The notes beneath the pieces are model-generated. The model was not told where the DNA came from. It searched no databases and saw only the letters and a list, made by a program, of their open reading frames with translations. 32,000 bases of DNA from Pyrodictium occultum (GTDB taxonomy: Archaea > Thermoproteota > Thermoprotei_A > Sulfolobales > Pyrodictiaceae). The stretch lies in the NCBI RefSeq assembly GCF_001462395.1, contig NZ_LNTB01000001.1, positions 420,001-452,000 of the forward strand, given 5' to 3'. Made by a program: the position numbers and the translations under genes. This document shows positions 15,509-31,276 of the stretch, in pieces (within the stretch, counting starts at the first letter, position 1; the number at the start of each line of letters is the position of its first letter).

Positions 15509-17476
15509 GTGGAGGACGTGCCGCGCTACCTGGGTGTCACGGCGCCGCCTGGAAGGAGGCTGCTCATGCTGGGTAACGAGGCCATAGCCCGCGGCTTCCT
15601 GGAGGCCGGGGTCCAGTTCGCCGCCGCTTACCCGGGCACCCCGAGCACCGAGATAGTGGAGGCGCTGGCTGCGGCCTCAAGGCTCTACGGGGGCAGGCCG
15701 TACGTTGAGTGGAGCGTCAACGAGAAGGTTGCCCTGGAGGCCGCGCTGGGCGCCGCCATAACCGGTGCCAGGGCTATAGCCGCTATGAAGCATGTCGGCC
15801 TCAACGTGGCGGCCGACCCGTTCTTCAGCAGCGCCTACCTGGGGGTCGGGGGCGCCCTGGTTGTAGTCTCGGCCGACGACCCCTGGATGTGGAGCAGCCA
15901 GAATGAGCAGGACAATAGGTGGTACGGGCTCCACGCCTACGTGCCGGTGGTGGAGCCGACGGGGGCGCAGGACGCTAAGGAGGCGGCCCGGCTGGCGCTC
16001 GAGTACAGCGCCCGCTACCGGAGGCCCTTCCTCCTCCGCACCACCACGAGGATAGCGCACACCCGGGCGGCGGTGGAGACGGGGCCGGTGAGCATAGAGG
16101 CCCTGGAGCCCCGGGGGGAGTTCTCCAAGGACCCGGCCCGGTGGACGCTGGTACCAGAGTATGCCAGGAGGCACCGGCTGGAGCTTCTGGAGGACTGGGA
16201 CAGGCTTGGGAGGGAGCTCGCGGGGTTCCCTCTCAACCGCGTCGAGGGGGACGGGCCGGTGGCGATAGTGGCCTCGGGGATAGGCTACCGCTACGCCAGG
16301 GAGGCTGCAAGGATACTTGGCGCCGAGGAGGACGTGACCATCTACGCCCTGGCCACTCCAGTGCCGCTGCCTGGGCCCCTGGCGGAGAAGGCGCTCAGTC
16401 ACGACACCGTACTCGTTGTGGAGGAGGGCGACCCGGTTGTAGAGATCCAGCTCAAGACCGCCGCGGCCGAGCTGGGCTCCGGGGCCAGGATACTGGGCAA
16501 GCGTGGGCCCGAGAGGCTGCTACCCCGCCACGGGGAGCTGGGCCTGGGGGTGGTGGCGGCCGCGCTCGCGAAGCTCCTCGGCCGGGAGCCCCCCTCCTGG
16601 GCCGGGGGCGGGGCCTGGGAGCCCGGCGTCAAGCTGCCCCCGAGGCCCCCGGTGCTGTGCGCCGGCTGCCCCTACCGCAGCTTCTTCTACGCCCTGCGCC
16701 GCGCCGTGAACAGGCTGAGGCTCCGGCCAGTCTACAGCGGGGATATAGGCTGCTACAGCCTGGGCATACTCCCGCCCTTCGAGATGCAGGATATCATTAT
16801 AGACATGGGGGCTAGTATAAGCGCCGGCAGCGGCATGGCCCACACGCTCCGGGACGATAGGAGGGTAGTAATAGCCATCATAGGGGACTCCACGTTCTAC
16901 CACAGCGGGGTAACCGGGCTAATGAACGCTGTCTACAACCGGGCGCCCATGCTCGTGATAGTGCTCGACAACCATACCACCGCGATGACGGGGCACCAGC
17001 CCCACCCAGGGGTGGGTGTTGACGCGGAGGGCCACAGGGCGCCGGAGGTTAGGATAGAGGACGTGGCTAGGGGCGCTGGTGTAGAGAAGGTGTTGGTTAG
17101 CGACGCCTTCGACGTAAAGGACTCGGAGGCGAAGCTGCTCGAGGCGCTGCGCTACGTGGTCGAGGAGAGGAAGCCCGCGGTGCTGGTGGCGAGGGGTGCC
17201 TGCATACTAGTGGCGCTCCAGCAGGCTCGCCGCCAGGGGGTGAGGCCCCCTGTCTACTATGTGGACCAGGAGAAGTGCACCGGCTGCGGGATATGCTACA
17301 CTGTGTTCAACTGCCCCGCCATAATGAGGGGCGAGGGCGGCAAGGCTGTGATAGACCCTGCTCTCTGCACCGGCTGCGGGGAGTGCGTCCAGGTCTGCCC
17401 CTTCGGCGCCTTCAAGCCGAGCCATGAGCCTCCGGCGGAGTGGGAGAAGCTTATGAGGACAGCCAAGCCGAGCTAG
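15509..17476 (+). CDS. iorA: Indolepyruvate:ferredoxin oxidoreductase, alpha subunit
   Basis: 655 aa. LGNEAIARGFLEAGVQFAAAYPGTPSTEI, the TPP-binding region GDIGCY...IGDSTFYHSG, and two C-terminal ferredoxin motifs (CTGCGICYTVFNCP, CTGCGECVQVCP) are present. The start is GTG 15509 or ATG 15566. Confidence 0.92.
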   Translation: MEDVPRYLGVTAPPGRRLLMLGNEAIARGFLEAGVQFAAAYPGTPSTEIVEALAAASRLYGGRPYVEWSVNEKVALEAALGAAITGARAIAAMKHVGLNVAADPFFSSAYLGVGGALVVVSADDPWMWSSQNEQDNRWYGLHAYVPVVEPTGAQDAKEAARLALEYSARYRRPFLLRTTTRIAHTRAAVETGPVSIEALEPRGEFSKDPARWTLVPEYARRHRLELLEDWDRLGRELAGFPLNRVEGDGPVAIVASGIGYRYAREAARILGAEEDVTIYALATPVPLPGPLAEKALSHDTVLVVEEGDPVVEIQLKTAAAELGSGARILGKRGPERLLPRHGELGLGVVAAALAKLLGREPPSWAGGGAWEPGVKLPPRPPVLCAGCPYRSFFYALRRAVNRLRLRPVYSGDIGCYSLGILPPFEMQDIIIDMGASISAGSGMAHTLRDDRRVVIAIIGDSTFYHSGVTGLMNAVYNRAPMLVIVLDNHTTAMTGHQPHPGVGVDAEGHRAPEVRIEDVARGAGVEKVLVSDAFDVKDSEAKLLEALRYVVEERKPAVLVARGACILVALQQARRQGVRPPVYYVDQEKCTGCGICYTVFNCPAIMRGEGGKAVIDPALCTGCGECVQVCPFGAFKPSHEPPAEWEKLMRTAKPS

Positions 17477-17491
17477 GGAGGGGGTAGAGGG

Positions 17492-18115
17492 TTGGCTGGG
17501 AGCCTCAACATCCTTGTAAGCGGCGTGGGGGGCCAGGGCCTCATAACGCTCTCGACCATAATAGCGAGGGCGGCGCTGCGCCGCGGCGTGGACGCGCTGG
17601 TGGCGGAGACCCATGGGCTCAGCCAGAGGGGTGGCATAGTGACTGTCCACGTTAGGCTGGGCGACGTGGACGCCCCCCTGGTGCCCCGGGGAGCCGCGGA
17701 CGCGGTACTCTCCATGGAGCTTATAGAGGCTGTTAGGAGCCTAGCCTACCTCCGCCCCGGGGGCACGGTGGTGGTCAACGACTACCTCGTGCCCCCGCCG
17801 CTGCCCGGCGTAGAGGTGCCCCCGGCCCAGAGGCTCATAGAGGAGCTGGGGAGGAGGGCCGGCAGGCTGGTAGTCGTGCCGGCCACCAGCGAGGCCCTGA
17901 GGCTCGGCGACTCGAGGGTTGCCAACATGGTCCTCCTGGGTGCTGCCCTCGAGGCCGGGGTGTTCGAGGGCTATATTGACGAGGCAGCCGTGGAGGAGGC
18001 TATACGCGAGGCCTGGCCGCGGGCGGCGGAGATCAACCTGGCGGCCCTCCGAGCCGGCCGCGAGGCCGCGAGGAAGGCGCTGGAGGCGGTGGCCGCGGCC
18101 CCGAGAAGCCCCTAG
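17492..18115 (+). CDS. iorB: Indolepyruvate:ferredoxin oxidoreductase, beta subunit
   Basis: 207 aa. NILVSGVGGQGLITLSTIIARAA...ETHGLSQRGGIVTVHVRLGD is the gamma-domain pattern of 2-oxoacid:ferredoxin oxidoreductases. It lies directly after iorA. Confidence 0.9.
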   Translation: MAGSLNILVSGVGGQGLITLSTIIARAALRRGVDALVAETHGLSQRGGIVTVHVRLGDVDAPLVPRGAADAVLSMELIEAVRSLAYLRPGGTVVVNDYLVPPPLPGVEVPPAQRLIEELGRRAGRLVVVPATSEALRLGDSRVANMVLLGAALEAGVFEGYIDEAAVEEAIREAWPRAAEINLAALRAGREAARKALEAVAAAPRSP

Positions 18116-18147: not shown

Positions 18148-18801
18148 CTACTCCACTGGCACGAGCCGCCCAGACTCTATCCTGTATACCCTGAAGCCGG
18201 GGAGTGCATCCGCCACACCTCTCTGAGGAGAGGTGGCTACCACTGCGACTCCGCGGCGTAGCAGGCTCTCTAGAAGGCTGCTCAGCGACTCCGACGCCTC
18301 ATCGTCTAGGCCCGTGAAGGGCTCGTCTATGACCAGCGCCCTGGGCCTATGGAGCAGCGCGCGGGCTATGTTAGCCCTCTTCTTCCACCCGAAGCTCAGC
18401 TCCCCGGCCCTGGTGTCGAGATAGCGGTGGAGCCCGAGCACCTCTACCACCTCGTCGCCCTCCGGCTCGTAGCCCTCAACGCCGTAGAGCCTGGCGTAGT
18501 ACTCGAGGTTCTCCCGGACGGTGAGCTCGTCGTAGAGGAGGCTATGGTGGAGCACGACCCCGACGAAGCGTCTAGCGCCCGGGAGGCTGGGCGGCTGCCC
18601 CTCCACCAGTACCCTGCCGCGGCTCGGCCTGGTCAGCCCGACGAGTATACGTAGGAGCGTCGTCTTGCCAGACCCGTTGGGCCCGACTATCAGCACTCCC
18701 CCGCCCGCCCCGGCGCAGAGGTTCACCCCCCTCAGCACCCAGCCACGGCTCCAGTCATAGCGTTTCCAGACGTCTATGGCTTCCAGCACACAGGCTTGCA
18801 A
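18148..18801 (-). CDS. ccmA: ABC transporter ATP-binding protein, CcmA-like by context (haem export/release ATPase)
   Basis: 217 aa with Walker A GPNGSGKTT, a degenerate signature LSFGWKKR and Walker B LVIDEPFTGLD. The ABC ATPase call is secure. The CcmA assignment rests on the neighbouring ccmB/C/E/F genes. Confidence 0.7.
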   Translation of the reverse strand: MQACVLEAIDVWKRYDWSRGWVLRGVNLCAGAGGGVLIVGPNGSGKTTLLRILVGLTRPSRGRVLVEGQPPSLPGARRFVGVVLHHSLLYDELTVRENLEYYARLYGVEGYEPEGDEVVEVLGLHRYLDTRAGELSFGWKKRANIARALLHRPRALVIDEPFTGLDDEASESLSSLLESLLRRGVAVVATSPQRGVADALPGFRVYRIESGRLVPVE

Positions 18802-18843: not shown

Positions 18844-18863
18844 GGCCCGGGAGCTCCCGGGCC
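18844..18863. promoter_or_regulatory. Perfect 20-bp palindrome GGCCCGGGAGCTCCCGGGCC between an AT-rich box (18864..18875) and the ccmA start
   Basis: Read directly. On the minus strand the order is: stop of the monohaem cytochrome gene, CTTTTTAAATAA (T-run and TATA-like box), the palindrome, then ccmA ATG 18801. Confidence 0.4.
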
Positions 18864-18895
18864 TTATTTAAAAAGCCTTAAGTTCAGAAGGAGGC

Positions 18896-19528
18896 CTAGC
18901 GCCGGGCCCGGAGGAGAGCGACGGCGAGAGCCACTATGGCTATGACGAGCACTGCTATGCCTATCGGCAGGGCGGTGTTCACGAGTCCCTTGCTCTGCTG
19001 GGATGGATTAGGCGTGGCCACGCTGGGTAACGTGGTGTAGCTCGGGGTGGTCGCGGCTGTAGTGGTAGCGGCGGGTGCCTGCGTAGAGGTCGTAGTCGTT
19101 GCACTAGCGGTTGCTGTAGTAGATGTGGCAGAGGCCGTCGATATAGTAGTCGTGGCGGCCTGGCCCGCGCCAGCGCCCCTGGCGCTGTTGAATACGTGCT
19201 CGAAGTATGCCTTAAGCTCTGGAGTCATGCCCGGCTTCATGCTCATCAGCTGGTCCCATGTCTTAGCATTCTGGAACATCTTGAAGTGAGGGGCCTCAGA
19301 CTCTACAGCCTTGTCGAGGCTAGGGTACGTGGAGGCCCATTCTCTAATCTTCTTGACAACGCCCTCAAAGGTGGGTGCGAGCCCGCCGTTATGACAGCTG
19401 CTGCAGCCTTTAGATGCGAACTCCTGCTTAGCCTGCTGATCCGAGAGAACGCCAGCGGCGAAAACGGGTGAGGCAACGCCTATCAGTATTACCGCGACGG
19501 CTAGGGCTAGAGGGATAGCACGCCTCAT
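18896..19528 (-). CDS. Monohaem c-type cytochrome with signal peptide, Thr/Ala/Ser-rich linker and C-terminal membrane anchor
   Basis: 210 aa. The signal is MRRAIPLALAVAVILIGVASPVFAAG. There is a single CSSCH motif and candidate Met ligands (MSMKPGM). A linker of about 60 aa (ATTTISTASATSTTATASATTTTSTQAPAATTTAATTPSYTT) is followed by LPIGIAVLVIAIVALAVALLRARR. Confidence 0.8.
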   Translation of the reverse strand: MRRAIPLALAVAVILIGVASPVFAAGVLSDQQAKQEFASKGCSSCHNGGLAPTFEGVVKKIREWASTYPSLDKAVESEAPHFKMFQNAKTWDQLMSMKPGMTPELKAYFEHVFNSARGAGAGQAATTTISTASATSTTATASATTTTSTQAPAATTTAATTPSYTTLPSVATPNPSQQSKGLVNTALPIGIAVLVIAIVALAVALLRARR

Positions 19529-19565
19529 ACCCTCATACCCCGTGCTTCACCTATGGGTTTCCTAT

Positions 19566-19580
19566 GTGTATTTAATACTC
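19566..19580 (-). promoter_or_regulatory. Candidate BRE/TATA (minus strand GAGTATTAAATACAC) for the monohaem cytochrome gene
   Basis: This is the AT-rich box in the 169-nt gap after nrfD. Its centre is 46 nt upstream of ATG 19528. It is near-identical to the box upstream of ccmC. Confidence 0.45.
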
Positions 19581-19697
19581 TTGTACTCACTCTTTGTACC
19601 CACTTCACCCTTTGGGGGCAGAGCATACGGATGCGGGGGCATTGAAAAATCCATGAACTTTGCCGAGCCGGTAAACCGTCCCAGAGCAGGGGCCGGC

Positions 19698-20945
19698 CTA
19701 AGATGTCTTAAAGTAGTGGGCCATCACAGCCTTGAGGGTTGGCCTGGCGAGCAGCAGGTATACTAGTATGCCGAGGGCGTGCACGCCAATGGTTATACCT
19801 ATCTCTATCGGCGTCGGGTAGTATGGCCTCACCTCGCCCAGGGTGCTGGGCTCGAAGGCTGGCAGCACTATCCTCATAGTCTTCTCGGCCACGACAGCTA
19901 CTATCGTGAGCGATGCTATGAATAATATGCCCCTCTTAGTGCTGTGGATGCGCGGCAACAGGCTTAGTATGACAGCGGCGGCGCCTAGAGATATCCAGAG
20001 CCATGCCAGCACCGACACGTACGGCAGATGCTGCCCCAGGAACATCGTTGCTGCCTGTGCCTTCTTGAGGGGCTCTGTGGTGTACCAGAATATCTCCTGC
20101 GCATCGCTGAGGGTGAAGTAGAGGCCTACTACTAGGCCGCCCACTATAACGTAGAGCGTCCTTCTGTAGACCTGGACATCTATCTTGAACCCATCCACAT
20201 ATCTTTCAGCTATGTAGAGGGCTACCAGCAGTATGGCTGGACCGCTGGCGAACGCCGTGGCAACGTACTCGGGGGCCAACAGTGGACTGTTCCATATAGG
20301 CCTCGCTGTTAACGCCTGGGAGATGAATCCGGTTACCGTGTGTATACCTATGGCGAAGGGCGCTGCTATTGTTATGAAGGGCACTATGAACTTCTTGGGT
20401 AGCGGCTTGTCCTGGCGGTAGTAGTGGACCGATGCTAGCACCCCTATCAGGTTTATGGTGAGGTAGCCAGTTATCACTATGAAGTCCCAGTCGAGCATCG
20501 AGTGTAGGTTGGGCAGCTGGGGCATCAGTATGAGCGCGCGTATTGGCCTGCCGAGATCGACGACGATAAGCATTAGCACGGTTATGAGTGCTGCTACGGC
20601 TTGTACCTCACTTAACGGGGCTATCTTCTTGAACTCCTCGTCCCCGAACACATATGCAGCCAGGCCGAAGGCTATGCCGGCGGCGGCTACACCGACCCAG
20701 AATATGAAGAAGGATATGTAGAGCCCCCATGCAACGCTGTCATTCATTGCCGTTAGTATAAGCCCGCCCTTGTCGCTTCCAAGGAATATGGGGGCGTGCT
20801 GCACGAATATCCAGAGGTAGAGGCCGTAGATGGCTACCAGCAGCAGCCCCAGCCCCGCTGCATAGTAGCGCGGGTTGTCCGAGACCAGGGCCTCTCTCAC
20901 AATGTACTTTATTGTACCCCAGAGACTAGGGCTCTCCCTGCTCAC
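19698..20945 (-). CDS. NrfD/PsrC-family integral membrane quinone-interacting subunit (long, about 10-helix type as in ActC/DsrP/HmeC)
   Basis: 415 aa and highly hydrophobic. Family-like segments are present: SVAWGLYISFFIFWVGVAAAG, VVDLGRPIRAL, HSMLDWDF, PIWNSPLLAPEYVATAFASGPA. It overlaps the Fe-S subunit gene by 4 nt. Confidence 0.85.
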   Translation of the reverse strand: MSRESPSLWGTIKYIVREALVSDNPRYYAAGLGLLLVAIYGLYLWIFVQHAPIFLGSDKGGLILTAMNDSVAWGLYISFFIFWVGVAAAGIAFGLAAYVFGDEEFKKIAPLSEVQAVAALITVLMLIVVDLGRPIRALILMPQLPNLHSMLDWDFIVITGYLTINLIGVLASVHYYRQDKPLPKKFIVPFITIAAPFAIGIHTVTGFISQALTARPIWNSPLLAPEYVATAFASGPAILLVALYIAERYVDGFKIDVQVYRRTLYVIVGGLVVGLYFTLSDAQEIFWYTTEPLKKAQAATMFLGQHLPYVSVLAWLWISLGAAAVILSLLPRIHSTKRGILFIASLTIVAVVAEKTMRIVLPAFEPSTLGEVRPYYPTPIEIGITIGVHALGILVYLLLARPTLKAVMAHYFKTS

Positions 20946-21985
20946 GCGTGGCCACCCCCTACCTGCCCCTCGGCTGCAGCTTGCTTGCGTGGAGGCGTGC
21001 GGGCTGGGCCGAAGAAGTAGAAGAACCTGGGCTTGGTACCCGCCTCGGGCTTAAGCACGAAGGCGCCGTACTCCTCCAACACCCTTCGTATTGGGCTATT
21101 GGGGTCGTTGAGGTCTCCGAACACCCTGGCGCCGACGGGGCAGACTTCGACGCACGCCGGCACCCCGCCGTCACGGGTGCGCTGGATGCACCAGGTGCAC
21201 TTCTCCATCACGTGGGGCTGCCTCGGTATATTGCCGAGTATATGCATATTGGGGTTTAGCTCCGTCACCGGTATGTAGGGCTTGGCCCAGTTGAAGTGGC
21301 GGGCGCCGTAGGGACAGGCGACCATACAGTACCTGCAGCCTATACAGCGGTCGTAGTCGACCACCACTATGCCGTCGGGCTCCTTCCAGGTGGCCCGCAC
21401 CGGGCACACCATGACGCACGGCGGGTCCTCGCAGTGCATGCAGGCTATCGGCACGTACACCTTGTCCGGCTTCGGCGCATCGTTATAGTGCATGTTGGCC
21501 TCCGTTATCTCCATTTCCTTCCGGGGCATCTCGACTACTTTTATCCACTCTATGTGCAGGTTCCTAGCCTGGTTGTTCTCCATAACGCAGGCGTAGGCGC
21601 AGCGGCGGCAGCCAATACACTTATTGACGTCGAGCGCCATTGCGTAGCGTACTCCCTTCCGGGGCCCGGTGGCCTTAACCCTTATCATCGCGCAGCGTTT
21701 CCGCGCCTCCCTGCAAGCATCGGAGCTCTCACCCCTCGCCCTGCATATCTTCTCAGCCTCCGCGCTGCACCACCTCTTTATCTTGACCTCCTTCTCTCGC
21801 GCCCTCCTCTCCAGGGGCGAGCCTGCCTCGGCAGCCTCGGCGACCAGGTCCTCGATTTTGACCGGCACCAGTATCTTCCTTAGGTGGGACCTGTCGACAG
21901 CTATGAACGATACAGCTGAGGCGCCGGCCGCGAGCGCAGCCGCCTTGAGGAAATCCCTTCTAGACCTATCCACCCCGCCCGACAA
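20942..21985 (-). CDS. Tat-exported four-cluster [4Fe-4S] ferredoxin-type subunit (NrfC/PsrB/DsrO/ActB2-like)
   Basis: 347 aa with a twin-arginine signal (SRRDFLKAAALAAGASA). Four cluster motifs are present: CIGCRRCAYAC, CMHCEDPPCVMVCP, CIGCRYCMVACP and CTWCIQR...ACVEVCP. An extra N-terminal Cys-rich helical segment is also present. Confidence 0.9.
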   Translation of the reverse strand: MSGGVDRSRRDFLKAAALAAGASAVSFIAVDRSHLRKILVPVKIEDLVAEAAEAGSPLERRAREKEVKIKRWCSAEAEKICRARGESSDACREARKRCAMIRVKATGPRKGVRYAMALDVNKCIGCRRCAYACVMENNQARNLHIEWIKVVEMPRKEMEITEANMHYNDAPKPDKVYVPIACMHCEDPPCVMVCPVRATWKEPDGIVVVDYDRCIGCRYCMVACPYGARHFNWAKPYIPVTELNPNMHILGNIPRQPHVMEKCTWCIQRTRDGGVPACVEVCPVGARVFGDLNDPNSPIRRVLEEYGAFVLKPEAGTKPRFFYFFGPARTPPRKQAAAEGQVGGGHA

Positions 21986-22003
21986 GCCGAGACACCCCGG
22001 GAT

Positions 22004-22735
22004 TCAGGCTCCAGAGGAGTTCTTACGGGAGCGCTCATAGGGCAGAACGAGTGCTCCCAGGACGAGGATCAGGCCCCCTACAACCGCCGCTATGTTGCCA
22101 TAGGTGACGCTGCTCTCATTGGGGGGCGGCGGCCTAAAGGAAGGCTCCGGGAGTATGTTGAGGGCCTTGAGCACCGGGTTGTGGGGGTCGTGGCACTCGA
22201 CGCAGGCCCTCGCAGGCACCGTCTTCAGGTCCTTGTAGCTGGGGCAGATGTGGAAGTTGTATATGACGCCCTTGTAGCCCTTAACCTTAACCACCTTGCC
22301 GCCCTGGCATACGAACGTCTTATTGCCGTGGACCAAGTTGATGTAGTCCCTGTACTCGCGTGGATGGCAGACGGCGCAGACCTTGTTGGTCTCCATCAGC
22401 TTGTCCCGGCTATGGGGCCCAGGTATGTAGACCTTCGCACCCCCCACAAGGTTTATCATTGTAGGCGGCCGGTGGCAGTTGGAGCATACAAGGCCACGAT
22501 GGGCGCCCTTTGTAAGGTTTATACCGTGGAAGGGCACCACCTTACGGTTGCCCGGCAAGTTCATGGCAGCATGGCACTTTGTGCATGGGTATATCTGGTA
22601 GAGCTGCTGGCCAGCTTGCTCGGCGCCGGCCCTGGCTGCAAGGGCTAGCGACAACACGACCATGGACAACAGCATGAGGATGGCTACAGCCCTAGAGCCA
22701 CGGAGCCACCCGTTTCTCAACGCATTCACCTCCAT
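22004..22735 (-). CDS. Tetrahaem c-type cytochrome with N-terminal signal/anchor and C-terminal transmembrane helix
   Basis: 243 aa with CxxCH motifs at residues 51 (CTKCH), 84 (CSNCH), 120 (CAVCH) and 178 (CVECH), plus many distal His candidates. The C-terminal segment is IAAVVGGLILVLGALVLPYERSRK. Confidence 0.85.
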   Translation of the reverse strand: MEVNALRNGWLRGSRAVAILMLLSMVVLSLALAARAGAEQAGQQLYQIYPCTKCHAAMNLPGNRKVVPFHGINLTKGAHRGLVCSNCHRPPTMINLVGGAKVYIPGPHSRDKLMETNKVCAVCHPREYRDYINLVHGNKTFVCQGGKVVKVKGYKGVIYNFHICPSYKDLKTVPARACVECHDPHNPVLKALNILPEPSFRPPPPNESSVTYGNIAAVVGGLILVLGALVLPYERSRKNSSGA

Positions 22736-22777: not shown

Positions 22778-22791
22778 CATGATTAAATCTG
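22778..22791 (-). promoter_or_regulatory. Candidate TATA box (minus strand GCAGATTTAATCAT) for the tetrahaem-FeS-NrfD operon
   Basis: The AT-rich box has its centre 49 nt upstream of ATG 22735, the same spacing as the other island promoters. Confidence 0.35.
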
Positions 22792-23028: not shown

Positions 23029-23577
23029 CTAGCCCTCAACCCTCCCAGCGGGCGCCTTATAGCTCTCGTGACAGCCCTCGAATATCTTGGACACTAGGAG
23101 CACACTATAGGGGCCGGCTACCCTGGAGCCTGTGGAGGGATCCAGGAGGACCGCCTCCAGGGCTGGGTCGTAGGTACCCTCTACCACTATCCTCGAGGAG
23201 ACTGCAGGGCTGCCGCCATAGAGGGTCTTGAAGGTCGTTGCACTGTATAGTGCTAGGATCTTTGTATGGCCATCCTGCCCCTCTAGTATGAACACTGCAT
23301 AGCTATCGTCGCTGCCGAAGCGGGGGCCGCTTACCCTGCTAGCCACGGCGTAGGAGCCATACCCCTTGACTAGGAATAGCGTGTCTCCCACCCGGAGCAG
23401 GTAGGTGCCGCTCAGGCTGACCGGCCGCCCCTTGACCGTAACGTAGGCCTTGTACTCGAGGTTCTTTAGACTCGATACATCCCGGTAGTCGGAGGATTTT
23501 ATGCCTACAAGCCCTATGGCGAAGAGAAGCGCGAACAAAACCCCTGCTAAGACGATGTATTTACCTGCTTTAACCAT
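23029..23577 (-). CDS. ccmE: Haem chaperone CcmE, archaeal/Desulfovibrio-type with CxxxY in place of HxxxY
   Basis: 182 aa with an N-terminal anchor (YIVLAGVLFALLFAIGLVGI), a beta-rich body and a C-terminal VSKIFEGCHESYKAP. The CHESY motif is encoded at 23059..23073, and I verified it codon by codon. This parallels the canonical ...AKHDENY.P. The gene lies directly downstream of ccmC. Confidence 0.75.
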   Translation of the reverse strand: MVKAGKYIVLAGVLFALLFAIGLVGIKSSDYRDVSSLKNLEYKAYVTVKGRPVSLSGTYLLRVGDTLFLVKGYGSYAVASRVSGPRFGSDDSYAVFILEGQDGHTKILALYSATTFKTLYGGSPAVSSRIVVEGTYDPALEAVLLDPSTGSRVAGPYSVLLVSKIFEGCHESYKAPAGRVEG

Positions 23578-23621
23578 ACAGACCCCATGCTGGGGGCTGG
23601 GCGACTGCGTTAGTATAAGAC

Positions 23622-24653
23622 TTACCTCGTAGAGTTACGGAGCCTAGATATATAGAGCATCAGTAGGCCTAGTAGAACCATGTACATAGCCGCGTTGAGC
23701 GCCACACTCCAGTGTATTACTATCTCCACGCTTCCTCCATTAAGCCTCACTATATGACCGATTATGCTGGGCTTGCCATCAACCACCTGCACGTGGAGCG
23801 GCTTGGCAAGCTTCACGTAGCCGCTCCCTGAGAGGTTGAGCGCCACCACGGAGCCGTTAACAAGCCTGGCACCTAGTACACGCTCCACGCCACCGGCGAG
23901 GTAGGGGGAGGCCACTATAAAGCCTATCACCATGCCAAGCATCACAAGGCCGGCGCCTACGTAGCGAAGACTGCGCGTAAACGGGATCTCCTCCCCCCGG
24001 AGGCGCTCCGCCAGTGTATAGCTCAGCAGCACCGCTATCACAGAGGCCATGAGGACCCTGGCTATAAATACTCTCAGCACGGCTGGCTGCTCCATGAAAT
24101 CCCTGAAGTTCTCCACGGTGGGGTGCAGGCTCGAGGCGGCTACACGGGGAGCCAGGAAGCTTATAGGCACCATGGAGTAGGCGGCGACAGCGTAGACTGC
24201 GCTTAGCCTGCTAGCCCTATCGGGGTCAGGTATACTGGAGCGGAGCACGAAGTAGAGGATGTATGCGAGGAGTAGGAGGAGCACACCGGTCTCCCTTGGA
24301 TCCCAGGACCAGGCTGCGCCCCAGGACTCGCTGGCCCACGCCATGCCGCTGACGAGCGTGAACACTGCGTAGAGGGATCCGGTAAGCACGAAGGCTCTCA
24401 CGTAGGCGTCTAGCTTCTCCTTCCCGCGTGTCAGGTAGAGTATGGCCGAGGCGAATGCTAGCGTGTAGAGAAGGTAGCTGCCCCAGGCCATGGGTATGTG
24501 TATGTAGATGTTCAGGTAGGCTGTGGGCGAGCCCAGGCTGACCCGCAGCGGGTAGGGGGCATGGTACACAGCATAGATCACGAGGCCAGCGTCTACGAGG
24601 GCTAGCAGCGCTAGGAGCGGCGCCGCGAGCCTTGCGAAGCCTCGTGGAGGCAT
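23622..24653 (-). CDS. ccmC: Haem exporter/haem-handling protein CcmC with a C-terminal extension of about 120 aa
   Basis: 343 aa. The first His loop is NIYIHIPMAW, the WWD motif is WGAAWSWDPRETG and the second His loop is SSLHPT. After the sixth helix come an extra helix, a beta-rich segment of about 60 aa and a final helix. Confidence 0.9.
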   Translation of the reverse strand: MPPRGFARLAAPLLALLALVDAGLVIYAVYHAPYPLRVSLGSPTAYLNIYIHIPMAWGSYLLYTLAFASAILYLTRGKEKLDAYVRAFVLTGSLYAVFTLVSGMAWASESWGAAWSWDPRETGVLLLLLAYILYFVLRSSIPDPDRASRLSAVYAVAAYSMVPISFLAPRVAASSLHPTVENFRDFMEQPAVLRVFIARVLMASVIAVLLSYTLAERLRGEEIPFTRSLRYVGAGLVMLGMVIGFIVASPYLAGGVERVLGARLVNGSVVALNLSGSGYVKLAKPLHVQVVDGKPSIIGHIVRLNGGSVEIVIHWSVALNAAMYMVLLGLLMLYISRLRNSTR

Positions 24654-24693
24654 AGCTGCTCCTTCACCAAGGGGTAATCGATGCGGTAAAAGG

Positions 24694-24706
24694 GTATTTA
24701 ATGCTC
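24694..24706 (-). promoter_or_regulatory. Candidate BRE/TATA (minus strand GAGCATTAAATAC) for ccmC-ccmE
   Basis: This is the AT-rich box in the 80-nt ccmF-ccmC gap. Its centre is 47 nt upstream of ATG 24653. It matches the box at 19568..19580 at 12 of 13 positions. Confidence 0.45.
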
Positions 24707-24733
24707 AAGCCCGACATTTCCGCAGGCACCTTG

Positions 24734-27700
24734 TCACCTGCCACCCTCCCTGTAGGCTGCGACTCTCGAGGCCGCGGCATAGACGGCTGCTAGCGCCATG
24801 ACCAGGGGGCCGAGCCATACAAGCCTGACGCCGGGTATCACCTTGACCTCTACGTGGAGGCCCTCCCTGGCTATAGTCGAGTTCGCAGGATTGAAGTTCT
24901 CGGCTAGAAGGTAGAGGTCCATAAGCGTGGCCTCGAGCTGCTGCCTCTCACTATTATCCACCACGCCGTCCCGGAGCACGTCAATATTGTAGCCAGCAGC
25001 CATGAGGGCTGCCAGCGCTAGGCGCTTCTCCGGCGGCAGCTGCTTAAACGCCTCGTGCAGGTAGTATATGAGCAGCTCGTGGTAAGCCGCCCTACCGCCA
25101 ATGTAGCCCTCCACTACAGGCGGGCTCACCACTACATAGACGTCGCCGAGCCCGTTAGCTATGGGTATGACTTTTGATACTAGGCCGTGTATACCCTGAA
25201 CCTCGCCGTAGGCCTCGAAGCGGATGCGCACCCTTACATCCCTGTGGGAGCTGCCCTGGTCGAGCCTCAGCTTCACATCAAGCCAGGCTGTCTCCGGCAC
25301 GAGCTTCGGGGCGGCGACATAGCCCATGCAGCTGTGGACTCCTCTCAGGCATTTTGGCGAGCTTATTACCGCCTCCAGCCGGCTCGTGTTCGTCAGTATG
25401 CTGTAGATCGATGAGTGCTCTATCAGCCGGATAACCCTGCGCATTGTAGGGTCTGCGGAGGCTACTATGTAGGCGCTGACCGCCTGCGGCAGCTGTGAGG
25501 GCACCTCGATGCCGCCGCCCCCCGGCGCCGCTATCGAGCCGTAGATGTAGAGGGCTGCGTCGCTCCCGCTAATGGTCCTCCCCTTCAGGTCTAGTGGTCT
25601 GCCCTGGCCCGCGAAGAGCAGGGCTTCGGAGAGCAGGGCGGCGCGGCTCACCGTTATGTTTACCCCGTCGACAGCTATGCTGAGGGGCTTGCCGGGCTCT
25701 ATGCCTATGAACCGGTGTATGCCTATTTTCTGCTCCAGTGGGGCCTTCCTAGGCAGCACTATGGCCAGGTTACCGGCTACCAGCAGCAGGTTTACACTCA
25801 TTATCCCCGTGTTGGGATTCATGTTCAGATTGATGTTTATTGATGCATTGCTGAGTATTATCTCCACGGGCTCGCCGCCAGCAAGTACTACTGTAGTATT
25901 TCTCTCTAGGTCGAAGAGCTTGAGCGTGGCATTGGCCTTTACTACGAGGGTCTTGTTGAGGGCCAGCGGGCTCTTTCTGGCAATGCCGAGAAGCCAATCT
26001 ATTGTCTTGTTCCTGGCTACCAGTTGCTTGCCCTGGTTGTAGAGGTTGAGGAATCTCACTATATCGCTCTTTATGTAGTTTATCGTGCTCCAGGCTAGCA
26101 TATAGGTGCTGCTCCTGCCCACGTAGTCTGTGTATATGTCTACGGTGGAGTTGCTTATCCCGTAGCTATAGCCCTCGAAGACTAGCCTAGCTCCTCCGGG
26201 CAGCTCTATCGAGTCGCCGGGCTTCAGCTGGTAGTACCAGGTGTACTTGGTGTTGAAGGCGTAGGTGCCGCTGAGCAGCACACCTATAACGGTGACGGCG
26301 AGGCCCAGGTGGAGCAGGGACACGCTGGTCAGCCGGTCTGCCAGCAGCCTCCGGGGACCGAGGCGCAGCTTGTAGGCGAGGTAGGCTAGCACGGAGGCGG
26401 CGGCCACGAGGGCCCATGGGAGGCCGAAGGCCATCATCGCGTTTGTCGCAAGCGGGCTGAGCGGGGCTAGGAGGTAGGTGCCGCGGTAGGCGGCCAGCCC
26501 GAAGGCTGTAGCCACTATAGCGGTCGATGCGGTGAGGGCGGCGTAGCCGCGCCAGCCCAGCCTGTCGCCGGTGAAGGCTAGCGGGATCGCCGCGAGGAGG
26601 ACGACCAGCATCGGGTATAGTACTGGGTGGAAGTAGCGGATGCCGCTCTCCATCTGCGGCACGCTTACCTCACGGCCGATGGCCGTCAGTATTGAGGGTA
26701 GGAAGAGGGTGCCGTAGACGTAGACCGCCGCGGCGGCGAGCACGAGGCCGGCTACCAGCAGCCCCACAGTGTAGGGCTGGCGGCGCCTGAGCACGGCAGC
26801 AGCCTCTGAGAGCGCCTCCCCGCCCCTTCTGGCGGCGAGGTAGACTGCGTAGGCTGCGGGGGTCAGGCCCGCGGCCAGCAGCACTAGAGCGCCAGCACTG
26901 GGGGCTGCGAAGCTGTGGAGCGGGCTGAGCCCTGTACGCGTGACATACATAGCCATGAACACTGAGCTCAGCAGCCAGGCGGAGTTGAACGCTGAGAGGC
27001 TTGGCAGGGTCATCAGTAGGTGGGGCAGCACTGTTGCCACAAGCCATACCATGAGCTCGCTCGTCTCTACAGGGTCCCAGGCCCAGTAGCCTCCCCACCC
27101 GAAGGTCTCGTAGCTCCAGTAGCCGCCAAGCATTATACCAATGGTTAACAGTGCCCAGCCTAGCTCATACACCACCAGGCAGCGGCGCCTCTCCCCCGTC
27201 AGCATCGCGGCCGCGGCCACTGCGAGGAGGGCATAGCCGCTGAAGGTGCTGAGTGGGTGAGGATAGAGCCAGGGGCTCTTCAGCAACGGGTTGAGCCCGG
27301 CGCCGCTGGCAGGGTGCCCCTGCATAGGTGTGAAGGCATCGTTGAGGAACGCGGCCGCCAGCCCGGCCAGCACTATGCTGCCCAAGAGCGCCTGGAAGCT
27401 GCGGCGCCTATGCCTCTGGAGCAGGTAGAGGCCGGCGAGAGAAGCCAGCACGGTGAAGAGGTAGAGGCTGCCTCCGCCGCCAGCCCAGGAGGAGGCTATC
27501 CTCATCCAGGCCGGCAGCCCTGGACTAGTCTCCCAGAACACCTCCTTCAAGCTGTAGTCGAGGCGGACAAAAGCAGAGACGTATAGCAGCCACCCCAGCA
27601 CCGCTGCCAGGAGGCCGTAGCGCAGCAGCCTGGAGCCGTCCCGCCGGCCTAGGGCAGCCGCCACCCCGGCGGCTACGAGGACCCCGGAGGCCAAGGGTAG

Positions 27701-27754
27701 CACGCCAGTATAGTGGAGCGGAAGCGCCATCTTACCCAACCTCTTCCCATCCAC
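24734..27754 (-). CDS. ccmF: Cytochrome c-type biogenesis protein CcmF (haem lyase component), unusually long
   Basis: 1006 aa. The polytopic N-terminal two thirds carry the WWD motif WGGYWAWDPVETSELMVW and flanking His residues. Canonical landmarks for the start and end of the outer-face domain are present: KPGDSIELPGGARLVFEG and EVKVIPGVRLVWLGPLVMALAAV. A large inserted region lies between them. The start could be the internal MALPLHY. Confidence 0.9.
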   Translation of the reverse strand: MDGKRLGKMALPLHYTGVLPLASGVLVAAGVAAALGRRDGSRLLRYGLLAAVLGWLLYVSAFVRLDYSLKEVFWETSPGLPAWMRIASSWAGGGGSLYLFTVLASLAGLYLLQRHRRRSFQALLGSIVLAGLAAAFLNDAFTPMQGHPASGAGLNPLLKSPWLYPHPLSTFSGYALLAVAAAAMLTGERRRCLVVYELGWALLTIGIMLGGYWSYETFGWGGYWAWDPVETSELMVWLVATVLPHLLMTLPSLSAFNSAWLLSSVFMAMYVTRTGLSPLHSFAAPSAGALVLLAAGLTPAAYAVYLAARRGGEALSEAAAVLRRRQPYTVGLLVAGLVLAAAAVYVYGTLFLPSILTAIGREVSVPQMESGIRYFHPVLYPMLVVLLAAIPLAFTGDRLGWRGYAALTASTAIVATAFGLAAYRGTYLLAPLSPLATNAMMAFGLPWALVAAASVLAYLAYKLRLGPRRLLADRLTSVSLLHLGLAVTVIGVLLSGTYAFNTKYTWYYQLKPGDSIELPGGARLVFEGYSYGISNSTVDIYTDYVGRSSTYMLAWSTINYIKSDIVRFLNLYNQGKQLVARNKTIDWLLGIARKSPLALNKTLVVKANATLKLFDLERNTTVVLAGGEPVEIILSNASININLNMNPNTGIMSVNLLLVAGNLAIVLPRKAPLEQKIGIHRFIGIEPGKPLSIAVDGVNITVSRAALLSEALLFAGQGRPLDLKGRTISGSDAALYIYGSIAAPGGGGIEVPSQLPQAVSAYIVASADPTMRRVIRLIEHSSIYSILTNTSRLEAVISSPKCLRGVHSCMGYVAAPKLVPETAWLDVKLRLDQGSSHRDVRVRIRFEAYGEVQGIHGLVSKVIPIANGLGDVYVVVSPPVVEGYIGGRAAYHELLIYYLHEAFKQLPPEKRLALAALMAAGYNIDVLRDGVVDNSERQQLEATLMDLYLLAENFNPANSTIAREGLHVEVKVIPGVRLVWLGPLVMALAAVYAAASRVAAYREGGR

Positions 27755-27778: not shown

Positions 27779-28861
27779 CTAGACGAGCTGGAGGGAGTAT
27801 AGCAGGAGGTAGACGCCGGCGGCTAAAAGCACCGCGCCACCAACACGGCTTAGCAGGTCATACCTGGCCATGATCCTGCTGACAACGCTGCCGCCCACAC
27901 GGCTCACCGCGTAGACAGCCGCCAGCGGGATGCTGATACCGGCCGCGAAGCTGCCCGCCACCAGGAGCCCCGAGGCCAGGTTCCCGGAGCTGGCCACGAG
28001 CAGCAAGGCGCCGACCACTATAGGCAGGTTGCACTGGACCGCCAGGAAGCCGTAGACCGTGCAGAACCCCGCCAACCCGCCGCGGCGAGTGCTTACAAGC
28101 CCCTCAAGCTCCACCGGGACGCCGAGGAGGCTAGCCACCCCGGCGGCCACGACCGCGGCTGCCACAACCGGGACTAGTATGCTCTGCAGCGAGGAGGCCA
28201 GGCTAGAGGCCAGGGCGAACACGAGCCCTATGGCTATAACGCCGGCGAAGGACGCGGCGCCGCAGGCCACGCAGCCTGAGGCGCTGACCCTTCTACCGGA
28301 GGCACCGACTACACTGACGTAGGTTGCCAAGAGCGGCAGCACGCAGGGGGAGAAGGCGACCACCACGCTGGCGGCGAGCGCCGCCAACGCGCTCACCGCG
28401 CTAGCCCCCGCAGTGCCGGCCTCCTCGAGAGGGCTCGAGGCGCCACGCACCGGGGCGGCGGTAGTGGTGTTAGCTAGCGCCCTGCGGCCCACTATCCTAG
28501 GGGCCGCCTTGCCCTCGAGTATCGCCGAGACGTAGTCGAGGAAGTAGGCTGCCCTGTCAATCTCGTAGGATGACAGGTCCGGGAGGTACTTCCTCATAGA
28601 CGCTACCGCCGCCATTAATTCTCCATAGCTGCCGTAGAGCTTGCGGAGCGTCATATTCTTCTCCAGAGCCTCCTTCATCTTCTCCGCCAGCAGGTCGGGC
28701 TGCCCGCTACGCGAGGACAGCCAGGCCTCCAGAGACGCCTTATCAAGACCCTTCACCTCCCCGTGGCAGGCCGAGCACCGCTCGTTGAACACGCGCAGCC
28801 CTCCTGAGCAAGCTTCTCTGGCTCCGATACCGTGGCGGCGCCCACGGAGAAGAGAGCCCAT
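27779..28861 (-). CDS. ccdA: Monohaem cytochrome c domain fused to a CcdA/DsbD-type thiol-disulfide transporter membrane core
   Basis: 360 aa as listed. The cytochrome c domain reads LRVFNERCSACHG ... SMRKYLPDLSSYEIDRAAYFLDYV. An Ala/Thr linker follows, then six hydrophobic helices carrying the two conserved Cys motifs FSPCVLPLL and VQCNLP. The 5' 109 nt overlap the thioredoxin ORF; see findings. Confidence 0.85.
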   Translation of the reverse strand: MGSLLRGRRHGIGAREACSGGLRVFNERCSACHGEVKGLDKASLEAWLSSRSGQPDLLAEKMKEALEKNMTLRKLYGSYGELMAAVASMRKYLPDLSSYEIDRAAYFLDYVSAILEGKAAPRIVGRRALANTTTAAPVRGASSPLEEAGTAGASAVSALAALAASVVVAFSPCVLPLLATYVSVVGASGRRVSASGCVACGAASFAGVIAIGLVFALASSLASSLQSILVPVVAAAVVAAGVASLLGVPVELEGLVSTRRGGLAGFCTVYGFLAVQCNLPIVVGALLLVASSGNLASGLLVAGSFAAGISIPLAAVYAVSRVGGSVVSRIMARYDLLSRVGGAVLLAAGVYLLLYSLQLV

Positions 28862-29334
28862 TCCAGCATAGCATTCGTTATGTTGCTGCCCCCGAAGGCG
28901 CCCACGTGCCTGGCCACAGGCCTACCGTTAACAAACACTATGAATGTCGGCGTGTCGGTCACATGGTACCGCATAAACACGTCCTGGGTGGCGGGGCTGA
29001 ACATGACGTGGAGGAAGCGTATGGGGAGCCTATCGCTCTCGTGCTCCAGCACCGCCCAGTAGGGGTACATCCTCTTACATACAGGGCACGTGGGTGACTC
29101 GAACATAACCGCTACAGGCTTTGATGACCCCAGCACAACTCTGTCGAACACACTGGAGCTTCTTATCGAGTACCCGCTTACGCTTAGATAGTAGTTAGCC
29201 ACGTGCATCTCATGCTCAATCAGCGCTGCCGTGAACGAGGCGGCGACTATAACCACGGAAGCCAGCAGCAGGCCGGCCCTCTTAGCCCGCTGGAAGCCGC
29301 GCAGGTCCAGACGCATCCTACGTGGACTTCTCAT
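28753..29334 (-). CDS. Membrane-anchored thioredoxin-fold thiol:disulfide oxidoreductase (CcmG/ResA-like role by context)
   Basis: 193 aa as listed. A basic N-terminus is followed by the anchor AGLLLASVVIVAASFTAALI. KPVAVMFESPTCPVCKRMYPYW carries CPVC at 29077..29088, and ...TPTFIVFVNGRPV is a Trx-fold cis-Pro region. The last 14 residues (CACSTSGARPATGR) look like out-of-frame read-through. Confidence 0.85.
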   Translation of the reverse strand: MRSPRRMRLDLRGFQRAKRAGLLLASVVIVAASFTAALIEHEMHVANYYLSVSGYSIRSSSVFDRVVLGSSKPVAVMFESPTCPVCKRMYPYWAVLEHESDRLPIRFLHVMFSPATQDVFMRYHVTDTPTFIVFVNGRPVARHVGAFGGSNITNAMLEWALFSVGAATVSEPEKLAQEGCACSTSGARPATGR

Positions 29335-30169: not shown

Positions 30170-30894
30170 CTAGCCGCCCCCAACCACCGGTTCTTCGACA
30201 CTCTCTCCGACACCCGCCTTCCCGCGCTTTAACCCGTGCTTGGAGCCTAGACGCTTCTCTACCACGTTCATCTGGTGCTCTCCCTGCAGCATCCTGCCTA
30301 CTAGGTATTGCGGAAGCTCGTGGCGTACGAAGGCGTCTATTATCTTTGATTCAGCTCTCCGGAGGAGCTCAGCCAGCGTTGACACCGAGAGCCCAAGGCT
30401 CTCCGCGAGCTGCTTGAGGCTTATCCTACGGGGAAGCTATAGTAGCCCATGAAGTAGGCGTATATTATCGCGAGCTCCTGCTTCTCCGTAAGCATATAGG
30501 CGTACTCGTCTATGCTATGACTGTGGATTATCTTGCAGCCCCATCTACGTAGCTCCTCGAGAGCGCTGCTGCGGGCTATTATGAACTCATACAGGATGCC
30601 TAGAGGCATGAGAACCACCGTCTTAGACATGGCCCCTATAGGGGCCGCTATTAGCGGGCACGCACTGCCCTCCGGCTCTGCCGCGCGTTTACTACAGTAG
30701 CTCCTCTTGGAGACGAGTATGCGGAGAATCCTGTTAAACTTAAACTTATTAGAATAGATCCGTAAATCCAGTGCCTCCGTCAGAGCCTTCATCGAGTTCA
30801 TGATGCCCGCCGAGCGAGGGGACGGAACTAATAGCCTTGAGCAATGGGCAGTCAATGTTACGTATACAATATATAACGAGCGGCTTGTTAGCAT
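30170..30894 (-). pseudogene. HTH_10 (Bat-type) family transcriptional regulator interrupted by a 1-nt frame disruption
   Basis: ORF 30421..30894 ends ...LTEKQELAIIYAYFMGYYSFPVG*. My translation of the -1 frame continues RRISLKQLAESLGLSVSTLAELLRRAESKIIDAFV, joining ORF 30170..30385. Together these give the complete HTH_10 motif (LT..Q...L..A...GY...PR...L.ELAE.LG.S..T..E.LRRAE.K). The break is at the C4 run (G4 on the + strand, 30430..30433). GC is lower than in the neighbouring genes. Confidence 0.7.
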
Positions 30895-30930
30895 GCATCC
30901 CTTAGCACCCCGGGAGCTCTAATACGGGCA

Positions 30931-31020
30931 TTAATTCTGGGGGCGGAATACGTAAATAAACAGAAATAAGCACAGAAATAAGCAGGGTATGAGGATGAGA
31001 GAGGATGAGAAGGGAAACAT
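30931..31020 (-). CDS. Speculative 29-aa hydrophobic micro-ORF (MFPFSSSLILIPCLFLCLFLFIYVFRPQN)
   Basis: My own translation runs from ATG 31020..31018 to TAA 30933..30931. A strong AT box (gtaattataaaatattac, 31062..31079) has its centre about 50 nt upstream, the same spacing as the other promoters here. Both tandem repeats lie inside it, and CLFL-CLFL comes from the 12-mer. It could equally be non-coding. Confidence 0.25.
   Translation of the reverse strand: MFPFSSSLILIPCLFLCLFLFIYVFRPQN
30961..31010. repeat. Two adjacent tandem duplications: CAGAAATAAGCA x2 (30961..30984) and GAGGATGAGA x2 (30991..31010)
   Basis: Read directly. All copies are perfect. They lie in the AT-rich 382-nt gap upstream of the regulator gene. 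Confidence 0.9.
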
Positions 31021-31276
31021 ACTACCAGCTCCACCCGCTTAGTCGCGTGTTATCGAGCATCGTAATTATAAAATATTACTGATGAGTGGCGTCGAGCTAT
31101 AGCGCTTGCCAGCGACACAGGCTACTAGGACCGTCTAGCTAGGGGTAGGCGAGAAAGCACAACGCCCAGTGCTACGCCCAGAGCGCCTGATACGATCCAT
31201 CCTGGTGCACTGGCGGGGGCGTGAGAGTGCGTTAGGACAGTTGCCCCGTGCGGGTTCTGGCTCCTCTCCGGGTTCT

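Follow-up and report, generated by a model that had tools for sequence, protein, structure and literature searches.

The stretch of Pyrodictium occultum DNA analysed here (contig NZ_LNTB01000001.1, positions 420,001 to 452,000; its whole length of 32,000 nt is referred to as the window) carries on its minus strand four genes, in the order tetrahaem cytochrome c, iron–sulfur (FeS) protein, NrfD-family membrane protein and monohaem cytochrome c. On the basis of sequence comparison, we put at roughly 55% the probability that their products form a (methyl)menaquinol:cytochrome c oxidoreductase complex, independent of Rieske/cytochrome b proteins and serving as a respiratory hub. A preliminary description of the same DNA had proposed a module free of a catalytic subunit, laid out like a complex that couples quinones to cytochrome c. 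That layout was borne out in gene content, cofactor motifs, topology, conservation and homologies; the description was right in kind, wrong in pedigree, and overstated how unknown the archaeal genes are.

The anchored tetrahaem cytochrome c is encoded at 22004..22735 by an open reading frame (ORF) of 243 aa, which gene callers begin 5 codons downstream (238 aa), and contains four CxxCH motifs, a hydrophobic N-terminus (residues 16–34) and a C-terminal helix (residues 215–233), both assigned by hydropathy. A comparison of 20 orthologues showed five further invariant His (70, 79, 136, 162, 185), which make four bis-His haems feasible, and two invariant Cys (143, 164). A TATA-like ATTTAAT at 22782..22788 on the minus strand, approximately 50 nt upstream of the tetrahaem ATG, was read from the sequence as a candidate operon promoter. 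The DsrO-like FeS protein (20942..21985, 347 aa) is predicted to be exported by the twin-arginine (Tat) route, carrying the motif SRRDFLK, and has 16 cluster Cys in four ferredoxin-type groups, invariant in 25 orthologues; its Pfam scan gave Fer4 and Tat matches only (Fer4_11, E=1.4e-19). Its gene overlaps by 4 nt (20942–20945) that of the DsrP-like NrfD-family subunit (19698..20945, 415 aa), an ORF 100% identical to a P. occultum protein, which matches Pfam NrfD (E=1e-32), contains ten transmembrane helices by hydropathy, and gave an AlphaFold2 model with the same ten helices at a predicted local distance difference test (pLDDT) score of 90.7. A 169-nt gap follows, containing the TATA-like TATTAAATA (19569..19577, minus strand, 41–49 nt upstream of the monohaem ATG), read as a possible internal promoter, and after it the gene for an anchored class-I monohaem cytochrome c of c553/c555-like type (18896..19528, 210 aa), with one CSSCH, a conserved Met (LMxxM), a Thr/Ala-rich linker, and hydrophobic helices at the N- and C-terminus. 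The four ORFs, their order and strand, and the layout of each product, including the promoter-like box before the monohaem gene, agree with the preliminary description.

Relatives were collected by an NrfD-alignment scan using one genome per species, producing about 30 archaeal loci from Pyrodictium, Hyperthermus, Pyrolobus, Thermodiscus-like archaea and other Desulfurococcales, plus Ignicoccus pacificus. ORF maps showed that the order tetrahaem–FeS–NrfD–monohaem is kept across these loci, and the arrangement is therefore not due to chance; the complete genomes of P. delaneyi (L060), H. butylicus (L061) and P. fumarii (L062) contain the same module. Of 26 informative archaeal loci, 22 have the monohaem gene after NrfD, overlapping it in 6 and abutting it in 2, and because of these eight relatives it was counted as part of the unit despite the gap in P. 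occultum, as had already been proposed. In H. butylicus the FeS gene is split between two called ORFs (206 and 154 aa; L061 8908–9976, CP000493), which may reflect a broken module or a frameshift in the record.

The window was also confirmed to be without a gene for a catalytic subunit: no molybdopterin, NrfA-type or sulfite-reductase-type ORF is present in it by size or family, CxxCH was found in the window only in the two cytochrome ORFs and as a thioredoxin CxxC-H, and the only window ORFs of at least 600 aa are CcmF-like (1006 aa) and the alpha subunit of an Ior-type 2-oxoacid:ferredoxin oxidoreductase (655 aa). No molybdopterin-type gene was found within 10 kb in 33 archaeal loci, where the large proteins scanned nearby were octahaems of the HAO family, CcmF, Ior, a helicase, a peptidase, coiled-coil proteins and others without a Pfam family; for one Pyrolobus neighbour of 721 aa (L062) no Pfam match is recorded. 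DsrM/DsrK-like genes were absent from the window, from the gene tables of L060–L062, and from the ORFs mapped around the other archaeal loci.

For family placement, neighbour-joining trees with 200 bootstraps were computed for the NrfD and FeS subunits, the sequences being classed by their gene neighbourhood or by the solved structures that they matched. The groups were DsrMKJOP loci, stand-alone bacterial tetrahaem–FeS–NrfD loci (FeS and NrfD subunits DsrOh and DsrPh), molybdoenzyme pairs, ActC-like proteins, and E. coli NrfCD with HybAB; the sample was context-labelled and lacked curated QrcD, NhcC and MccD references, and E. coli NrfCD served both trees as the chosen outgroup, so that its position there is no test. 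In the NrfD tree the archaeal sequences are monophyletic (100%) and form with DsrPh and DsrP a 100% clade that leaves out ActC and the molybdoenzyme anchors, and in the FeS tree the archaeal clade is sister to bacterial DsrOh with 98% bootstrap. Hidden Markov models (HMMs) of the groups scored the window NrfD at 237 bits (DsrPh), 233 bits (DsrP), 132 bits (molybdoenzyme-associated) and 108 bits (ActC), and the FeS protein at 329 bits (DsrOh), 182 bits (DsrO), 204 bits (molybdoenzyme-associated) and 137 bits (ActC group). Among curated NCBIfam families, DsrP (211.7 bits, cut-off 350) and DsrO (198.8 bits, cut-off 200) were the best for the two subunits, both below the equivalog cut-off, and the remaining models scored far under theirs (QrcD 57/570 for NrfD; NrfC 126/377, HmcB 117/420 and QrcC 147/400 for the FeS protein), with no NrfD equivalog model matching the window NrfD. 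Membership of alternative complex III (ACIII), Qrc, Nrf, Psr/Sre and Hmc was rejected on these HMM scores and trees, and sequence placement of the FeS/NrfD pair points to the DsrO/DsrP superclade rather than to ActB/ActC, Psr, Nrf or Qrc.

The preliminary description had favoured a stripped-down ACIII and had suggested phylogenies of the pair; these, with the HMM scores, place the pair outside the Psr and Nrf enzymes and the molybdoenzyme groups in general, and they speak against kinship with ACIII, both subunits grouping with DsrP/DsrO in a superclade (100% bootstrap) separate from ActC. The resemblance to ACIII (ActABCDEF) is one of proposed function and of fold: the archaeal module likewise combines multihaem and monohaem subunits and would perform quinol:cytochrome c oxidoreduction without Rieske/cytochrome b, and Foldseek of the ten-helix NrfD model gave ActC as the closest structure (TM-score 0.78–0.80), followed by ActF and PsrC; structures of DsrP and QrcD did not appear in the matches obtained from the PDB copy used. 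However, the FeS protein, at 347 aa, has no ActB1 molybdopterin-like domain, ActD and a second NrfD-like subunit corresponding to ActF are missing, and, although ActC chains are the only solved structures matched by the NrfD sequence, the match is weak (phmmer E=1.7e-6 to 1.3e-2) compared with that of a genuine ActC (locus L054, 1e-64). The modular logic of a multihaem cytochrome, a four-cluster FeS protein and an NrfD-like protein is also that of NrfBCD, MccCD, Qrc and Nhc (MccCD and Nhc sequences were not scored), but E. coli NrfCD and HybAB fall outside the clade, and no QrcB molybdopterin-like ORF is present in the window.

The genes bear the database label 'polysulfide reductase', and the placement of the pair bears on the alternative that the module is part of a sulfur reductase or H2:sulfur oxidoreductase supercomplex, NrfD/FeS being a Psr/Sre-like anchor with its catalytic subunit encoded elsewhere. 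Such a role was proposed for the Ignicoccus hospitalis tetrahaem protein Igni_0530 by Nass et al. 2014, and haem c was found in Pyrodictium H2:S0 complexes (Pihl 1992, Dirmeier 1998; all as cited in the excerpted text of PMC4429474). We consider it very unlikely, given that the 33 loci are without a molybdopterin subunit nearby, that the pair groups apart from molybdoenzyme-associated NrfD/FeS proteins in the trees, and that the module occurs in Pyrolobus and is expressed in P. delaneyi Su06, which excerpts of PMC8105010 describe as a non-sulfur-reducer.

The nearest relative of the archaeal module appears to be the bacterial DsrOhPh–tetrahaem module (DsrOhPhCyt), judging from the FeS tree (98%) and from an hhalign comparison of the tetrahaem proteins (99.5% probability, E=2.4e-23, all four haem motifs covered); the NrfD tree is not specific to DsrPh. 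This module is found in cable bacteria, some Desulfobulbales, Gamma- and Betaproteobacteria and various sulfur oxidisers; its function is described as unknown, with speculation that it feeds periplasmic cytochromes with electrons taken from quinol, and the term 'candidate ACIII' was once applied to it (PMC13047784; bioRxiv 10.64898/2026.08.25.746951). The two forms share three homologous core subunits and stand alone, without DsrMK or a catalytic subunit. The archaeal and bacterial stand-alone FeS subunits also share an N-terminal helical extension and an insertion, NMH(I/Y)LGN, both absent from DsrO (insertion-bearing bacterial loci L035, L038, L040, L042); the invariant His248 within the insertion may, by analogy with DsrO His148, serve as an axial haem ligand for the tetrahaem protein. 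In contrast to the bacterial form, the archaeal module adds the c553-type monohaem protein and the C-terminal membrane anchor on the tetrahaem protein, has two invariant Cys in an insertion that separates haems 3 and 4 of the tetrahaem protein, extends the FeS protein by a segment with four Cys, lacks the TMH1 (first transmembrane helix) of the cable-bacterial protein, and has an NrfD that scores 212 bits with the DsrP model against 360–397 bits for the bacterial proteins.

The 4-Cys extension (FeS residues 60–105) is predicted to be helical, has C73, C81, C91 and C98 conserved in 23–25 of 25 orthologues, is without counterpart in DsrO and is Cys-free in bacterial DsrOh; it could form a disulfide-stapled hairpin or an extra metal site. 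Single-sequence AlphaFold2 prediction of the FeS protein was unusable (pLDDT 35). Stand-alone DsrPh of bacterial loci L035, L038 and L042 exceed the 350-bit NCBIfam DsrP cut-off with scores as high as those of true DsrP (360–397 bits), and automatic annotation would therefore name them DsrP even where no Dsr genes are nearby. The neighbours in these three loci are two-component regulators and 13- to 16-haem NapC/NirT-fused cytochromes, with two tandem NrfD copies in L038, and the possibility that the bacterial relatives are ordinary DsrMKJOP loci was rejected, these neighbours standing in place of DsrMK.

Compared with DsrJOP itself, the window module has the same wiring from NrfD through a four-cluster FeS protein to an outer-face multihaem cytochrome, and the quinol-site Asp is conserved. 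It differs in having a tetrahaem cytochrome rather than the trihaem DsrJ with its His/Cys haem, in the absence of DsrM and DsrK, and in having Asp152 at the position of DsrP Phe127. No DsrJ-family model was among the NCBIfam matches of the tetrahaem protein, which was not compared pairwise with DsrJ sequences. In cryo-EM of DsrMKJOP, menadiol was seen bound to DsrP near the outer face, beside the strictly conserved Asp107 and less than 8 Å from a DsrO cluster, with electrons passing from DsrP to DsrO to DsrJ (bioRxiv 10.64898/2026.08.25.746951). Asp130 and Ser149 of the window NrfD align with His74/Ser92 of E. coli NrfD and Asp109/Ser129 of HybB, which are quinol-site residues across the family (PMC8076601), and by this alignment form a putative quinol site; Ser149 is invariant, and Asp130 is kept in Pyrodictiaceae and in Ignicoccus, including Ignicoccus pacificus. 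The 2021 survey of NrfD-like subunits, in the excerpts available, lists no class of this kind and no DsrP in Crenarchaeota (PMC8076601).

The tetrahaem protein belongs to a very small family (31 clusters at 50% identity with E≤1e-3 and 10 at 1e-10, among 1.84 billion representative proteins), and shares 48% identity (E=1e-55) with Igni_0530, which, as excerpted from Kletzin et al. 2015, forms one tetrahaem cluster with Pyrfu_1102 and Hbut_1391, was purified from Ignicoccus hospitalis membranes, and was tentatively assigned to the sulfur reductase (PMC4429474). The Ignicoccus module differs in being without the monohaem protein and in its longer NrfD (468 aa). For the monohaem protein, a whole-protein database search returned only itself and one relative, the low-complexity linker having swamped the word index, and a haem-domain alignment search gave no match; its family profile matches a cytochrome c552 chain (2zxy) and an engineered cytochrome c555 trimer. 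Its haem domain is 31% identical (BLASTP E=9e-12) to that of Aeropyrum pernix APE_1719.1 (cytochrome c553), and both proteins are laid out as signal or N-terminal helix, class-I haem domain, Thr-rich stalk and C-terminal helix. Cluster 30 (c553-type monohaem) of Kletzin et al. 2015 holds APE_1719.1, Hbut_1395 and Pyrfu_1105 (PMC4429474, excerpts); the position of the latter two after NrfD was confirmed in their genomes. The A. pernix c553 is the sole identified subunit of a purified complex, measured as a menaquinol:cytochrome c reductase, whose quinol oxidiser was taken to be Rieske/cytochrome b, haem B being present (PMC3062577), whereas here the corresponding part would be NrfD/FeS/tetrahaem. 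This homology fits the earlier suggestion that the anchored monohaem protein is the output carrier. The excerpts of Kletzin et al. further state that Pyrolobus and Hyperthermus have this cytochrome and lack Rieske and cytochrome b proteins, and suggest an 'unidentified electron transport complex' (PMC4429474).

Electrons could also run in the opposite direction, the module acting as a Qrc-like cytochrome c:quinone reductase that passes electrons from hydrogenase-reduced periplasmic cytochromes to the quinone pool. NrfD/FeS/multihaem modules work in this way in Qrc (PMC6303296, excerpts), and the native hydrogenase of I. hospitalis is reported to reduce the octahaem Igni_0955 (PMC4429474). The Pyrodictium hydrogenase, however, is described as a membrane-bound group 1g enzyme with methylmenaquinone as its proposed direct acceptor (PMC8105010), DsrP/O/J, the nearest relative to have been characterised, oxidises quinol (bioRxiv 10.64898/2026.08.25.746951), the QrcD model gave a tenth of its cut-off, and a His/Met class-I cytochrome would be a poor donor to low-potential menaquinone; we regard this direction as decidedly improbable. 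A bis-His tetrahaem protein followed by a His/Met monohaem protein would instead give a potential rising toward the monohaem, which fits flow from quinol to cytochrome c.

Another alternative, which we judge unlikely, is that the module is the quinol-dehydrogenase arm of an HAO-family octahaem reductase, comparable to NrfBCD–NrfA and MccCD–MccA, with the gene for the enzyme lying close by in certain species and at another site in P. occultum. Of the 33 archaeal loci, nine carry, no farther than 10 kb away, a gene for an HAO-family (PF13447) octahaem that has a coiled coil at its C-terminus; this gene directly adjoins the module in L018, L025, L027 and L029, and in H. butylicus (L061) it is two genes away. 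The tetrahaem protein is weakly similar to the NrfB and NrfA cores, and the octahaem Pyrde_0496 of P. delaneyi is placed in the same 'putative complex' region in the excerpted text of PMC8105010. Set against this, no octahaem was seen within 10 kb in the majority of long-flanked loci (L005, L008, L015, L017, L030, L032, L062 from Pyrolobus and L060 from P. delaneyi), the NrfC score lies far below its cut-off and no NrfD model matches, and a His/Met monohaem as output points to a carrier of general use, not to one wired to a single enzyme. In some lineages the complex probably does have a haem enzyme as partner, and the neighbourhoods suggest that an HAO-family octahaem is one frequent client of the complex. 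The expectation that no catalytic gene stands beside orthologous clusters thus held for molybdopterin subunits (0 of 33 loci), and for HAO-family octahaems it failed in 9 of the 33.

Loci with an HAO-family octahaem beside the module include L018, L023, L025, L026, L027, L029, L033 and L061. The octahaem is often paired with a membrane protein of approximately 715–740 aa, of no Pfam family, which recurs in L022, L023, L027 and L029; the possibility that the ~727-aa neighbour is a haem-less HAO paralogue was rejected, as no similarity was found. An overlap of the monohaem gene with NrfD and a neighbouring HAO octahaem mark the same loci, L022–L029, in which Asn replaces the residue equivalent to Asp130.

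Returning to the proposed oxidoreductase, the assembly of the four proteins, quinol as substrate, the direction of electron flow and the partners are predicted from sequence as follows. Quinol would bind NrfD near the outer face at Asp130/Ser149 and be oxidised there, with protons released outside. The Tat-exported subunit, with its four [4Fe-4S] clusters, would take up the electrons and hand them to the anchored tetrahaem protein, whose four haems, all bis-His, would conduct them to the c553/c555-type His/Met monohaem, borne on a stalk that is long and probably glycosylated. From the monohaem they would reach terminal reductases under the S-layer, either HAO-family octahaems or the nitrate, metal or sulfur-compound reductases of the species, and, together with a quinone-reducing hydrogenase taking up cytoplasmic protons, the complex would close a proton-motive redox loop. 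The module occurs in species using sulfur, nitrate, Fe(III) or O2 as acceptor, and these varied acceptors, the expression in a non-sulfur-reducing strain and the location among ccm genes argue for a general hub rather than one dedicated enzyme. Methylmenaquinone is reported from Pyrolobus, and a menaquinone methyltransferase is expressed in P. delaneyi (PMC8105010, excerpts).

Orthology of Pyrde_0485–0488 of P. delaneyi to the window genes was checked by gene order. According to excerpts of PMC8105010, Pyrde_0485 (monohaem) was more abundant on ferrihydrite, and Pyrde_0486 (NrfD) was present in a haem-stained band from nitrate-grown cells; of the four proteins, these two are the ones named there as found by proteomics. 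Orthologues have therefore been detected at the protein level: monohaem and NrfD in P. delaneyi, and the tetrahaem protein, as purified, from I. hospitalis. The terms used for these direct orthologues are 'possibly part of the sulfur reductase' (Igni_0530) and 'a putative membrane respiratory complex' (Pyrde_0485–0488), with no mechanism given, and no paper linking the archaeal module to DsrOP or ACIII was found in the literature searched. The archaeal module was thus partly anticipated, and its function is a prediction from sequence. The earlier statement that no archaeal equivalent had been described biochemically holds for the mechanism, which is absent from that literature, and not for the components, Igni_0530 having been purified and the genes partly noted.

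Several points weigh against a quinol:cytochrome c oxidoreductase. P. occultum is a strict anaerobe growing on H2 and S0, and the acceptor for a His/Met cytochrome there is in doubt. The 169-nt gap with its TATA-like box permits separate transcription of the monohaem gene in P. occultum, and the published surveys in which Rieske/cytochrome b proteins were missing cover Pyrolobus and Hyperthermus. In the NrfD tree the archaeal clade is sister to DsrP and DsrPh together, not to DsrPh specifically, with near-equal HMM scores (237 versus 233), and no activity, co-purification or structure has been reported for the complex from any archaeon. The quinol-site Asp130 is replaced by Asn in the Thermodiscus-like subclade (L022–L029), and solvent extraction of Ignicoccus hospitalis, which has the tetrahaem–FeS–NrfD core, is reported to have yielded no quinones (PMC4429474, excerpts). 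The last two points would also suit a quinone-independent complex in which NrfD is a mere anchor or proton channel for an extracytoplasmic FeS/haem wire, as proposed for the quinone-free complex of Dehalococcoides (PMC10772276, excerpts); the conservation of Asp130 and Ser149 in Pyrodictiaceae and also in Ignicoccus pacificus, and the occurrence of methylmenaquinone in Pyrodictiaceae (PMC8105010), make this extremely unlikely.

The four-gene cluster is embedded within ccm haem-attachment genes. Directly upstream, at 23029..27754 on the minus strand, are a CcmF-like (1006 aa) and a CcmC-like (343 aa) gene, both with Pfam/NCBIfam matches, and a 182-aa ORF (23029–23577, minus strand), and farther upstream are a thioredoxin-domain gene and CcmB. 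The 182-aa protein has an N-terminal helix and the motif EGCHESY, is conserved beside CcmC in relatives, and gave no Pfam or NCBIfam match; these features resemble the CxxxY form of CcmE, the haem chaperone, found in archaeal System I. Directly downstream is a CcmA-like ABC ATPase (18148..18801, minus strand; NCBIfam ccmA E=1.6e-34, 119 bits, cut-off 131.6), and between the monohaem stop and the ccmA start are a T-run/TATA-like TTTTTAAATAA (18865–18875) and, after it, a perfect 20-nt palindrome, GGCCCGGGAGCTCCCGGGCC (18844–18863). The ccm flank is identical in P. delaneyi. An Ior-type 2-oxoacid:ferredoxin oxidoreductase (655 and 207 aa, 15509–18115, plus strand) converges on the ccmA end and is unrelated to the module.

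Compared with the 99.3%-identical strain contig L001, the window has a 1-nt deletion in a G-run at approximately 28,800, which splits a 519-aa thioredoxin-domain, ccm-associated gene into two overlapping minus-strand ORFs (27779–28861 and 28753–29334); the P. delaneyi gene is intact at 519 aa, and the split reflects an assembly indel or else a genuine pseudogene. At the end of the window (30421–32000), the single BLAST alignment to L001 stops at 30742, and an HTH_10 regulator is a 157-aa ORF (30421–30894) compared with 296–297 aa in L001 and P. delaneyi, which may be another indel or a strain difference.

We tentatively propose, at somewhat less than even odds, that Pyrodictiaceae carry out anaerobic respiration at about 100°C through a new 'complex III', in which a DsrOP-type module and a tetrahaem wire are combined with the type of anchored c553 cytochrome that Aeropyrum, an aerobic relative, pairs with Rieske/cytochrome b, amounting to a natural swap of the quinol-oxidising engine and giving a first physiological role for the DsrOhPh–tetrahaem module, including that of cable bacteria. 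The label 'polysulfide reductase' on genes without an accompanying catalytic subunit is a warning for annotation. If the function proposed here is correct, the complex would supply the connection that has been missing in Pyrodictiaceae between the quinone pool and their abundant c-type cytochromes; members of this family rank with the most heat-loving organisms known and use sulfur compounds, nitrate, iron or traces of O2 for respiration. It would also provide a testable function for the module of DsrO-like, DsrP-like and tetrahaem proteins in cable bacteria and sulfur oxidisers, and would mean that, in one archaeal order, one anchored cytochrome c is served by two unrelated quinol-oxidising machines.

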